Assembly: GCF_003945235.1 (NCBI RefSeq)
Contig: NZ_RSDW01000001.1
Location: forward strand, 780,001-812,000
Length of the DNA stretch: 32,000 nucleotides
From: Edaphobacter aggregans
Lineage (GTDB): Bacteria > Acidobacteriota > Terriglobia > Terriglobales > Acidobacteriaceae
Direction of reading: 5' to 3'
This document shows positions 2,339 through 12,847 of this stretch, piece after piece. Each line of letters starts with the position of its first letter. The first letter of the stretch is position 1. The translations under genes and the position numbers were made by a program. The notes under the pieces were generated by a model. That model saw nothing but the letters and a program-made list of their open reading frames with translations, was not told the origin of the DNA and did not search any database.

Positions 2339-3103
2339 TTGACCTATGACAACTTGTTTGCTCTCTCAGGGCGAATTCTCGTCACCGGCGGCACGCGAGG
2401 GATTGGCCGCGCTATTTCACTTCGCTTTGCAAGAGCCGGCGCATCGGTAACTGCGAATTATCTCCGCAATCAAAAAGCTGCAGACGAGTTGAAGGCCACC
2501 GCAGAGCAAGAAGGTCTGTCGATTGACCTGTGTCGTGCCGACATCACCACCCCCCGCGGCCTTGAGCAAATCGAAAGCTCCGTCCACGACACTGGTGGAT
2601 CTCTTTCCGGGCTGGTTCATTGTGCGGCGACGGGTGTGCACCATACTCTTTCCGAACTCAATGTGCGCCACTTCGATTGGACGTTCGCACTTAATGTGCG
2701 GGCGTTTTTTGAATTAATGCAGGTCCTCATGAATCGGTTTTCGGAGCGATCAAGCGTGGTGGCGGTCAGCTCGATCGGTGCTCAGCGTGCTTTGCCCTAT
2801 TACTCTCTGGTCGGTGCATCGAAAGGTGCGCTCGAGGCGTTCGCCCGACATCTCGCGGCGGAACTGGCGCCGAGAGGGATTCGCGTGAATATTCTTGCCC
2901 CCGGCATGGTCGCGACCGAAGTCTGGAAGGTCCTTCCGGAAGCAGAAGCCCGCGTTGCCGCCGCAATCAATCACACTCCGATCCGACGTTTGGTGACTCC
3001 CGATGAGGTGGCATGGGCCGCCCAATTCCTCTGTTCCCAGGCATCGATGGGAATAGTTGGACAGACCTTTGTTGTTGATGGGGGAGCAGCGATTGTGGGG
3101 TAA
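2339..3103 (+). CDS. SDR-family reductase, FabL-like enoyl-[ACP] reductase candidate
   Basis: Contains the TGGTRGIGRAI Rossmann motif. The active-site segment SSIGAQRALPYYSLVGASKGALEAF has Y-x6-K spacing, as in FabL/FabI-type enoyl reductases, rather than the classical YxxxK. The start is TTG, preceded by GGAGGG. Confidence 0.8.
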   Translation: MTYDNLFALSGRILVTGGTRGIGRAISLRFARAGASVTANYLRNQKAADELKATAEQEGLSIDLCRADITTPRGLEQIESSVHDTGGSLSGLVHCAATGVHHTLSELNVRHFDWTFALNVRAFFELMQVLMNRFSERSSVVAVSSIGAQRALPYYSLVGASKGALEAFARHLAAELAPRGIRVNILAPGMVATEVWKVLPEAEARVAAAINHTPIRRLVTPDEVAWAAQFLCSQASMGIVGQTFVVDGGAAIVG

Positions 3104-3139
3104 GATCGTCAACGTCACTTGAGTGGATGAGGAGGGAAG

Positions 3140-11700: not shown

Positions 11701-12847
11701 AGTCGGAATCCGAGATGACTTCTTCGAGATGGGCGGGGACTCGCTCGACGCGGTTCGACTTCTTCTTAGAATTCTCGCTGCGTTTCCTGCATGCCAACCC
11801 TCACTCGCCGTACTACTGAAGGCTCCAACTGTAGAGCAGTTCGCACGCACTCTCAACAGCGGGCAAGCCGATTGGTCGTGTCTGGTGGCGGTGCGGGAAG
11901 GTAACGAGCGGCCTCCATTCTTTTGTGTCCATGGTGCTGGAGGGAATGTGCTCAGCATGCGGGATCTGGCGATGGCTCTTCCACCCAGCCTGCCGTTCTA
12001 TTGCTTGCAGGCGCGAGGACTTGACGGCCACGCCGCTCCGTTTTCCAGCGTCGAAGAAACAGCGGAGTTCTATATCGACCAGATCCGGAACGTGCAATCC
12101 CACGGTCCTTACTACTTAGGTGGTGGATGCTACGGAGGTCTGGTCGCCTTTGAGATGGCCCGCCGTCTTCGATCCATGGGTGAGACTGTTAGCGTGGTGG
12201 CGCTGATGGATACCTGGAATTTCGCATACGGACGTTTCATCTCGAAACCGAAGCTGTTTTACTTCAACTCGCGTTTTTTCCTGCGGAGAACCCTCCACCA
12301 TATGAGGACGCTCAGCGAGGTAAAGCCGCGAGATTGGGCAGGTTACTTTTTAGGTCGCGCCAAAACCTTTCTACAGCTGGCGAAATCTGTGGCCCGAATA
12401 GCCGAAGGCGGAGACGAGACTCAGTTTCCGGTTAGCCTCGTGGACACTAAGCTTCAGGGACTAGAGAGCCATGGAGAATTGCGGCAGATTCTGGAGCGGG
12501 TTCGGAACGCAAGCCACGTGGCAGCACTAAATTTCATTCCAAAACCCTACGACGGTCATCTCCTCGTGTTCAGCGCAAGAACGCGAGTTGATGACCCATA
12601 TCGCGATGAGGCGCTTGGTTGGAGCCCTGTGGCACTGTGCGGCGTGACGTCCCATGTAATCGATGGGGACCATCTATCGATCTTCCGCAGCCCCGCGGTA
12701 GGCGCGATTGCCGAGAAGTTGGACAGGGCTCTTCAAGATGCGCAGCAGACTAGCCAGGAGAGTATTCAAAGCCGGGAAGCATTTCTTGTACAAGAACGAT
12801 CAGAGGCTGAACTGGGAGAGATCAAATCCGCTGGGACGCAGATGTAA
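8762..12847 (+). CDS. single-module non-ribosomal peptide synthetase, domain order C-A-T-TE
   Basis: This is the internal Met of ORF 8582..12847; the upstream part overlaps the FabZ-like gene in another frame. C motifs are [13 protein letters not shown] and HHILMDG. A motifs are [75 protein letters not shown] and [10 protein letters not shown]. The T motif is [12 protein letters not shown]. TE motifs are [16 protein letters not shown] and DGDH. Confidence 0.95.
   Translation: [1361 protein letters not shown]
8771..10066 (+). other. NRPS condensation (C) domain, N-terminal position
   Basis: The C1-like motif [13 protein letters not shown] lies at the extreme N-terminus. The HHxxxDG catalytic motif is at 9161-9181. 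Boundaries are approximate. Confidence 0.8.
10124..11596 (+). other. NRPS adenylation (A) domain, glycine-like specificity code
   Basis: A1-A10 core motifs are present. Hand alignment to GrsA-PheA gives the 10-residue code D-M-P-Q-V-G-L-I-W-K. Boundaries are approximate. Confidence 0.8.
11639..11845 (+). other. NRPS thiolation (T/PCP) domain
   Basis: GGDSL motif, with the Ser codon at 11741-11743. Confidence 0.85.
11903..12736 (+). other. NRPS thioesterase (TE) domain with Cys nucleophile
   Basis: An alpha/beta-hydrolase layout. The oxyanion region is FCVHGAGGN. The nucleophile elbow reads G-G-C-Y-G (Cys codon 12128-12130) where GxSxG is expected. Asp is in VALMDTW (12209-12211) and His in DGDHLSIF (12671-12673). 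Confidence 0.8.

Follow-up and report, generated by a model that had tools for sequence, protein, structure and literature searches.

We analysed a 32,000-nucleotide stretch of the Edaphobacter aggregans genome (contig NZ_RSDW01000001.1, positions 780,001 to 812,000 of the forward strand), referred to below as the window, in which eight + strand genes form a block at 2339-12847 (~10.5 kb; taken from the list of open reading frames (ORFs), with the junctions read directly). The first seven genes are called the cassette here; the eighth encodes a one-module non-ribosomal peptide synthetase (NRPS). A preliminary description, made from the sequence alone, had presented the block as an orphan operon in which an exogenous fatty acid is loaded onto a private acyl carrier protein (ACP), edited and condensed onto an amino acid. 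Our analysis leads to a different view: the eight-gene block is uncharacterised but is no orphan, being a derived form of a cassette known from O-antigen and flagellin-glycan loci. The genes are as follows:

2339..3103, + strand: FabL-type short-chain dehydrogenase/reductase (SDR; PF13561), probably acting as enoyl-ACP reductase; begins with TTG, and GGAGG lies 9 nt 5' of it
3140..3373, + strand: free-standing ACP (PF00550); serine site WDSVGHLDL; GAGGAGG ahead of the start
3391..4869, + strand: ANL (AMP-forming) acid ligase, presumed ACP loader (PF00501 and PF13193); ATG at 3391
4862..5986, + strand: LuxE-like acyl-protein synthetase (PF04443); its start overlaps the ligase stop, ATGGATGA
6001..7257, + strand: LuxC-like thioester reductase (PF05893); ATG at 6001
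7281..8180, + strand: S-adenosylmethionine (SAM) methyltransferase with an N-terminal helical lid (Pfam methyltransferase families); alternative start at 7257
8218..8658, + strand: FabZ-like 3-hydroxyacyl-ACP dehydratase (PF07977)
8762..12847, + strand: one-module NRPS with a condensation, an adenylation, a thiolation and a thioesterase domain (C-A-T-TE; Pfam)

The intergenic gaps are 36, 17, -8 (ATGGATGA at 4862), 14, 37 and 103 nt, to which the LuxC-methyltransferase junction has to be added. There the methyltransferase had been taken to start within the overlapping TAATG at 7257. The overlap exists, but all 120 listed methyltransferase homologues are ~299 amino acids long (covering 97% of the query), so that the start is probably the ATG at 7281, which is preceded by AAGGAAGGAA and leaves a gap of 23 nt. 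The tight packing of the ORFs was otherwise as claimed, and the Pfam check upheld all eight family assignments, LuxE and LuxC included (E values: PF13561, 2e-56; PF00550, 1e-8; PF00501, 1e-65; PF04443, 3e-57; PF05893, 2e-57; PF07977, 3e-29). It is also correct that the block contains no ketosynthase, acyltransferase, luxAB, luxD, transporter or regulator, as judged by the Pfam and ORF scan. Since the identical gene order recurs in dozens of genomes, the arrangement is far beyond chance. The layout is tight and operon-like, as the proposal of a single operon had it, but it is not certain that all eight are transcribed together, because relatives carry the NRPS gene in divergent orientation. Promoter and terminator counts did not exceed those obtained from shuffled sequence and are therefore uninformative on operon structure; two tRNAs were the sole RNA elements found by an Rfam scan.

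Distribution and surroundings of the seven-gene cassette

Using the LuxE-like protein as query, one genome per species was scanned, which led to 51 loci, all from metagenome-assembled genomes, onto which the window proteins were mapped by tblastn. These loci span at least six phyla; their hosts belong to Acidobacteriota, Thermodesulfobacteriota, Verrucomicrobiota, Gamma- and Alphaproteobacteria and Leptospirales, with a single one labelled Mycobacteriaceae. Several of the related genomes were obtained from the SPRUCE bog. Besides LuxE (51/51), the loci contain LuxC (50/51), the methyltransferase (48/51), the ligase (46/51), the ACP (45/51), FabZ (44/51) and the SDR (31/51). The full seven-gene set is present in 28 of the 51 loci and is colinear with that of the window in 27 of these 28; median identities of the cassette proteins across the loci range from 60 to 71%. 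The NRPS of the window was found in a single one (L001). The conserved unit is therefore a six- or seven-gene cassette, and the NRPS, counted as part of the operon in the preliminary description, is an accessory module. Nor can genes 1-7 be called orphan, as they constitute a widespread cassette that usually resides in polysaccharide loci. At E<=1e-10 there are more than 4,900 homologues of the LuxE-like protein (the top 120 being 68-99% identical), and at E<=1e-5 there are 1,478 of the methyltransferase. As had been stated before, no characterised pathway matching the eight genes was found.

Flanking ORFs of the cassette loci were clustered and representatives annotated. GT2 and GT4 glycosyltransferases, a carbamoyltransferase, GGDEF proteins and GINT1-like proteins recur. 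A hexapeptide-repeat acyltransferase lies after or near the cassette in 19 loci, which fall into two related clusters (HHalign probability 98%): c8, with 12 loci, where the gene is mostly directly 3' of FabZ and the best NCBIfam matches include WcaF-, EpsC- and NeuD/PglB/VioB-type acetyltransferases, and c11, with 7 loci. When two ORFs on each side were counted (135 proteins), 10 GT2 and 10 hexapeptide proteins were found together with ~7 GNAT/FemAB/Acetyltransf_6 proteins, 2 MBOAT proteins, sugar dehydrogenases and epimerases. Neighbour clusters c20 and c22 gave no Pfam or NCBIfam match; c20 is weakly GNAT-like (HHalign probability 45%). Among the window ORFs scanned there is no glycosyltransferase or sugar-synthesis gene, and no hexapeptide-repeat or GNAT acyltransferase adjoins the cassette; that position is occupied by the NRPS. 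In locus L002, whose cassette is 78.5% identical to that of the window, an NRPS is absent and the slot after FabZ is filled by a hexapeptide-repeat acyltransferase. In most other genomes the cassette would pass its product to acyltransferases encoded in polysaccharide loci (hexapeptide-repeat, GNAT or MBOAT).

A trio of genes for an HprK-related kinase A, a PqqD-family protein and an NTP_transf_5 nucleotidyltransferase recurs in several Acidobacteriota loci, following the cassette and its acyltransferase in L008, L010, L020 and L023.

Cassettes of related composition have been noted in flagellin glycosylation islands. Islands of Aeromonas group II contain an ACP, a 3-oxoacyl-ACP reductase, an AMP-dependent synthetase, LuxE and LuxC (PMC7874193), and the same five families are found in several types of island in Enterobacteriaceae (PMC4875605); both papers merely guess at a 'liposugar' product. 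As in the window, the five families are adjacent and on one strand, and the ligase-LuxE-LuxC order is shared. The window differs in that the ACP/SDR order is swapped, the classical Y-x3-K SDR is exchanged for a Y-x6-K reductase of the FabL type, a methyltransferase and a FabZ are added, glycan genes are lacking, and it is an NRPS, rather than a sugar acyltransferase, that comes after the cassette. A comparable order is seen on a plasmid of a cultured strain, Deinococcus sp. NW-56, where glycosyltransferases, EpsG and a sugar transferase precede genes for an ACP, an SDR, an AMP-binding protein, an acyl-protein synthetase (LuxE), an acyl-CoA reductase (LuxC) and a NeuD-type acetyltransferase. 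The proteins of this plasmid are 27-36% identical to those of the window (25-39% for the Deinococcus and Ponticoccus plasmids together).

Another system of this kind is that of Vibrio cholerae O1, in which VC0248-VC0252 (wbeK-O / rfbK-O) serve to place tetronate (2,4-dihydroxybutanoyl) on perosamine (PMC3441752). Its likeness to the window, drawn from gene descriptions and not from sequence comparison, lies in a private ACP, an AMP-forming ligase, a LuxC/LuxE-like reduction and an acyltransferase, a short modified acyl being put onto an amine. The tetronate genes are said to have been described by Morona et al. in 1995 (Gene 166:19), the year to which this LuxE/LuxC-type case reportedly goes back. 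Besides an ACP and a ligase, their reported products are an iron alcohol dehydrogenase, a protein resembling LuxC/LuxE and an acetyltransferase. The iron alcohol dehydrogenase has no counterpart in the window, whereas the tetronate system lacks a methyltransferase, FabZ and a FabL-type reductase; its acceptor is perosamine, as opposed to the NRPS-bound amino acid proposed here. In the glycan of Aeromonas AH-3, a pseudaminic-acid derivative of 376.14 Da is accompanied by an unassigned 102 Da moiety; subtracting an acetyl (42.01) from the di-N-acetyl-pseudaminic acid residue (316.13) and adding C4H6O3 (102.03) gives 376.15, so that the mass is compatible with dihydroxybutanoyl, as it is with other compositions.

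Two further literature leads were discarded: a Methylobacterium paper had used lux primers for a reporter, and a tambjamine preprint concerns a stand-alone acyl-ACP reductase.

Catalytic features and the nature of the acyl group

FabL is the top NCBIfam model for the SDR, which at 211 bits falls short of the 328-bit cut-off, and the top solved structure is Bacillus subtilis FabL (3oic, 145 bits). The SDR carries the Y-x6-K signature of FabI/FabL enoyl reductases (YSLVGASK), which is invariant among the cassette SDRs, including those of every seven-gene relative; the Deinococcus, Ponticoccus and L048 cassettes differ from these in having a classical Y-x3-K. The FabZ-like protein shows HFPGYPIMPG and EAIGQ motifs and scores above the cut-off of one model (NF000582, 139.5 bits against 113) and below that of another (TIGR01750, 140.8 against 155). 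Fatty-acyl, feruloyl, malonyl and oxalyl CoA ligases are among the PDB relatives of the acid ligase. An AlphaFold2 model of the methyltransferase (pLDDT 78.7) has an N-terminal helical lid.

The LuxE- and LuxC-like proteins share their folds and both catalytic cysteines with the LuxCDE reductase of luminescent bacteria (PMC9157457): in alignments to structure 7xc6, the C-terminal RGCG cysteine of the former falls on KGCS of LuxE and the DQQAC cysteine of the latter on that of LuxC. Neither luxD nor luxAB is present among the scanned window ORFs, and the scores lie far under the equivalog cut-offs (LuxE-like, NF052244, 76.6 bits against 550; LuxC-like, NF052251, 69.9 against 750). The LuxC alignment extends to residue 414 of the 418 in the query and to residue 444 of the 477 in the chain, so the protein is ~33 residues shorter at its C-terminus than Photobacterium LuxC and has no counterpart of P460-P488, the segment by which true LuxC closes a hydrophobic cleft of more than 40 A holding the myristoyl group (cryo-EM; PMC9157457).

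The features of the NRPS are:

8774-10090, + strand: C domain (Pfam)
10151-11572, + strand: A domain (Pfam)
11660-11854, + strand: T domain (Pfam)
11915-12844, + strand: TE domain (Pfam)
12128..12130, + strand: codon of Cys1123, the predicted thioesterase nucleophile (GxCxG in place of GxSxG; family alignment)

The HHxxxDG motif of the C domain (HHILMDG) and the carrier serine of the T domain (GGDSL) are intact. The C domain is nearest to a C domain of PvdL (chain residues 559-1012, 277 bits), with McyB C1 next; in our understanding, the matched part of PvdL comes after its acyl-ligase and carrier domains and serves to join a fatty acyl to glutamate. The specificity code of the A domain reads DMPQVGLIWK, and other family members have DILQVGLIWK or DILQLGMIWK, which are presumably glycine codes; code positions were assigned by aligning motifs with those of GrsA without gaps. 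Together, the glycine-like code and the proximity to the PvdL lipoinitiation domain support the earlier suggestion that the N-terminal C domain would acylate a small NRPS-bound amino acid. In the TE domain, the nucleophile motif is GGCYG (residues 1121-1125, 12122-12136), with Cys in 31 of 35 family members, and such a cysteine thioesterase may favour transfer rather than hydrolysis. There is also a long insert between GGCYG and the C-terminal part of the domain. The 640-bit NCBIfam match to SolG of solanimycin biosynthesis was set aside as generic NRPS similarity, since the solanimycin cluster has no LuxE/LuxC; the paper found in this connection had matched through the name of an author.

From these features we propose, with a probability of about 0.5, that the cassette builds a tailored acyl group which the NRPS donates to glycine, giving an N-acyl-glycine. 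The ANL ligase would load the acid onto the private ACP. LuxE would adenylate a carboxylate and pass the acyl via its C-terminal cysteine to the cysteine of LuxC for reduction to an aldehyde, as the conservation of both residues suggests. FabZ would dehydrate a 3-hydroxyacyl-ACP, the FabL-type reductase would saturate the resulting enoyl, and the methyltransferase would add one methyl; the scheme fixes neither the sequence of these reactions nor the methylated position. The C domain would then take the finished acyl-ACP and N-acylate glycyl-S-T, and the cysteine thioesterase would release or transfer the N-acyl-glycine. Because two activating (adenylating) enzymes accompany one ACP, the most coherent substrate would be a bifunctional acid, for example a hydroxy-dicarboxylate with one end held on the ACP and the other reduced, a logic already proposed for tetronate.

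This departs from the route first suggested, in which the ACP receives a long-chain fatty acid of exogenous origin, which undergoes dehydration, enoyl reduction and methylation and is condensed to the amino acid while LuxE/LuxC make a fatty aldehyde in parallel, so that the product is a lipoamino acid with or without an aldehyde. Several observations are in line with such a route: long-chain fatty-acid CoA ligases are among the top NCBIfam and PDB matches of the ligase, one housekeeping FabZ cut-off is passed, and the C domain resembles PvdL C1, which we assume from what is known of pyoverdine biosynthesis to accept a myristoyl donor. The serrawettin W1 synthetase SwrW also shows that a C-A-T-TE module, condensing a carrier-held acyl onto one amino acid, can make a lipoamino acid (PMC7767323). 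The window NRPS differs from the SwrW type in its glycine code (instead of serine), its Cys nucleophile (instead of Ser) and its acyl donor, which would be a dedicated tailoring cassette and not primary fatty-acid synthesis. The low LuxE and LuxC scores and the missing cleft-closing segment speak against the fatty-acid route, a second adenylating enzyme and a dehydratase would be superfluous for a fatty acid, the usual partners of the cassette are acetyltransferase-type sugar N/O-acyltransferases, and the analogous V. cholerae genes yield a C4 acyl. The exogenous fatty-acid substrate is unsupported, and two adenylating enzymes agree better with a bifunctional acid; on balance a long fatty acid is disfavoured as the acyl group, and we consider the fatty-acid route unlikely.

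Linkage of the NRPS to the cassette

Members of this NRPS family are widespread and occur in four kinds of surroundings, two with and two without the cassette. All four NRPS homologues that are 72-98% identical to that of the window and whose context was read are linked to a cassette, either on the same strand, as in the window itself, L001 (87%), L060 (98%) and L144 (74%), or in divergent orientation, as in L059 (72%) and L142/L143 (75%). This linkage, confined to the closest clade, thus occurs in two orientations. The nucleotide identity to the window is matched for the two parts, being ~87.5% for both in L001 and 74.7% (cassette) and 73.3% (NRPS) in L059. In the proteobacterial locus L042, a different NRPS, C-A(methyltransferase)-T-TE, is located between LuxC and the methyltransferase, and in L044 (Sulfotelmatobacter) the cassette is adjoined by split A-T, P450 and C genes, plus two GNAT proteins; unrelated NRPS genes have joined the cassette independently in these two distant lineages. 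It is these observations (linkage in both orientations, matched divergence, the acyltransferase of L002 in the NRPS slot, and the L042 and L044 arrangements) that chiefly support a direct hand-over of acyl-ACP to the C domain.

The two parts could instead perform separate jobs on one exopolysaccharide or envelope polymer, the acyl of the cassette being attached by a transferase encoded elsewhere and the thioesterase of the NRPS attaching glycine, or an N-acyl-glycine made from a housekeeping donor. Each part does exist without the other, since NRPS homologues are found in exosortase/exopolysaccharide or polysaccharide loci that have no cassette (L057/58, 68% identity; L056, 48%), and cassettes are found in glycan loci that have no NRPS; the 103-nt gap ahead of the NRPS and its divergent orientation in L059 and L142 point the same way. 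Yet the linkage has outlasted an inversion with both parts equally diverged, L002 looks as if its acyltransferase and the NRPS were alternatives for one slot, an unrelated NRPS lies inside the L042 cassette, and the window has no glycosyltransferase. Separate jobs therefore seem quite improbable to us. Even less probable is a use of LuxE/LuxC after the NRPS, where the thioesterase frees N-acyl-glycine, LuxE re-activates it and LuxC reduces it to a peptide-aldehyde-like N-acyl-aminoacetaldehyde: this would account for the two adenylating enzymes, for the need of LuxE for a free carboxylate and for the thioesterase as sole hydrolase of the block, but LuxE/LuxC are kept in ~45 loci without NRPS or thioesterase, and their primary substrate can therefore not be an NRPS product.

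Several points weigh against the hand-over of a cassette-built acyl to glycine as we propose it. Homologues that are 48-68% identical to the NRPS are met where the cassette is absent (the loci named above and, alone with a divergent phosphopantetheinyl transferase (PPTase) gene, L052 at 62% and L054 at 55%), so this NRPS family can use another acyl donor. The FabL-type SDR is missing from ~14 otherwise intact cassettes, which makes it the most dispensable member and not essential to the core chemistry. A dehydratase and an enoyl reductase without ketosynthase or ketoreductase have no obvious role in a dicarboxylate scheme. The ligase reaches no NCBIfam equivalog cut-off, and the methyltransferase model was matched by Foldseek to generic natural-product methyltransferases, C-methyltransferases of polyketide synthases included, at TM ~0.5, which is not decisive. 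The block itself has no PPTase, transporter or regulator. Finally, the chemistry is deduced from homology, here as in the searched papers on such cassettes with LuxE/LuxC and a private ACP in O-antigen or flagellin-glycan loci (PMC3441752, PMC7874193, PMC4875605).

A broader reading, which we put forward tentatively, is that the cassette is a portable acyl-donor module that has been repeatedly re-plugged between sugar acyltransferases and NRPS C domains. Here it would give a new N-acyl-glycine whose acyl is a short, reduced, methylated dicarboxylate derivative, possibly an enoyl or aldehyde, and which the thioesterase may transfer onward. If this were true, the same acyl would be a common undescribed exopolysaccharide substituent in peat and soil Acidobacteriota. 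In peat and soil bacteria the seven-gene form is common; its metagenome homologues number in the thousands, and it has no assigned product. The block points to an exchange of acyl-donor modules between glycan decoration and the assembly of non-ribosomal peptides. The NRPS-coupled form makes the function of the class as a whole directly testable, since it should release a small N-acyl-glycine, whereas polysaccharide loci bury the product in a polymer.

The 68% identical NRPS of L057/L058 (14192-18151) belongs to a PEP-CTERM/exosortase locus with EpsH, EpsI, a sigma-54 activator, Wzz, Poly_export, GT2, GT4 and a polysaccharide deacetylase, a context which suggests that the NRPS family can take part in exopolysaccharide modification; a literature search for NRPS within acidobacterial exosortase loci returned no papers. 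The divergent PPTase genes paired with the cassette-free NRPS are at 9055-9801 in L052, where a carboxylesterase gene is upstream, and at 9012-9803 in L054, which has a GDSL lipase gene downstream and integrases and an AbiE toxin-antitoxin pair nearby.

Boundaries of the block and flanking sequences

The block is bounded by tRNA-derived sequences:

2137..2213, + strand: tRNA-Arg (anticodon TCG), left boundary of the block (ARAGORN, Rfam)
2179..2209, + strand: left copy of a 31-nt direct repeat, within the 3' part of the tRNA-Arg (repeat search, alignment)
12873..12903, + strand: right copy of the repeat, an orphan tRNA-Arg 3' fragment (27/31 identical)

The tRNA-Arg(TCG) is 126 nt upstream of gene 1 and the right repeat 26 nt past the NRPS stop. 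With 2 mismatches allowed, the 26-nt core of the repeat matches two real tRNA-Arg genes and the right fragment alone, where 0 matches are expected from shuffled sequences. Homology between the window and L001 extends exactly over 2324-12865; the flanks are unrelated, and the L001 context has no tRNA. No integrase was detected inside the block by Pfam, and the block does not stand out in its base composition. No empty site emerged from a junction pattern scan, and among 79 metagenome loci retrieved as relatives of the downstream 812-amino acid gene (below) the arrangement was seen in same-strain contigs only. Our best reading is that the block is a self-contained, horizontally moved unit of 10.5 kb, made of two modules that recur separately.

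The second tRNA-Arg (anticodon ACG) is situated 5 kb downstream, at 17961-18037, and its 3' part differs from that of tRNA-Arg(TCG) at 1 of 26 bases. To the left, the ~1.3 kb between a HAD hydrolase gene and the tRNA (864-2136) show a strong GC skew (+0.30 over 1001-2000), and their ORFs are without Pfam support except for a weak HMA match at 1646-2080.

On the right, the - strand of 12919-15357 encodes an 812-amino acid protein that has no Pfam match and is apparently secreted, given its signal-peptide-like hydrophobic N-terminus. It was considered as a partner of the NRPS and rejected, being a secreted, beta-helix-like protein not homologous to the unannotated, similar-sized genes beside other NRPS homologues. 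Its beta-helix-like appearance is accompanied by a choice-of-anchor Q motif, and a proline-rich PPPS linker is followed by two near-identical C-terminal repeats (DNA 12932-13199 and 13229-13496). Relatives of this protein are often encoded as tandem pairs in the retrieved metagenome contigs (L063-L141).

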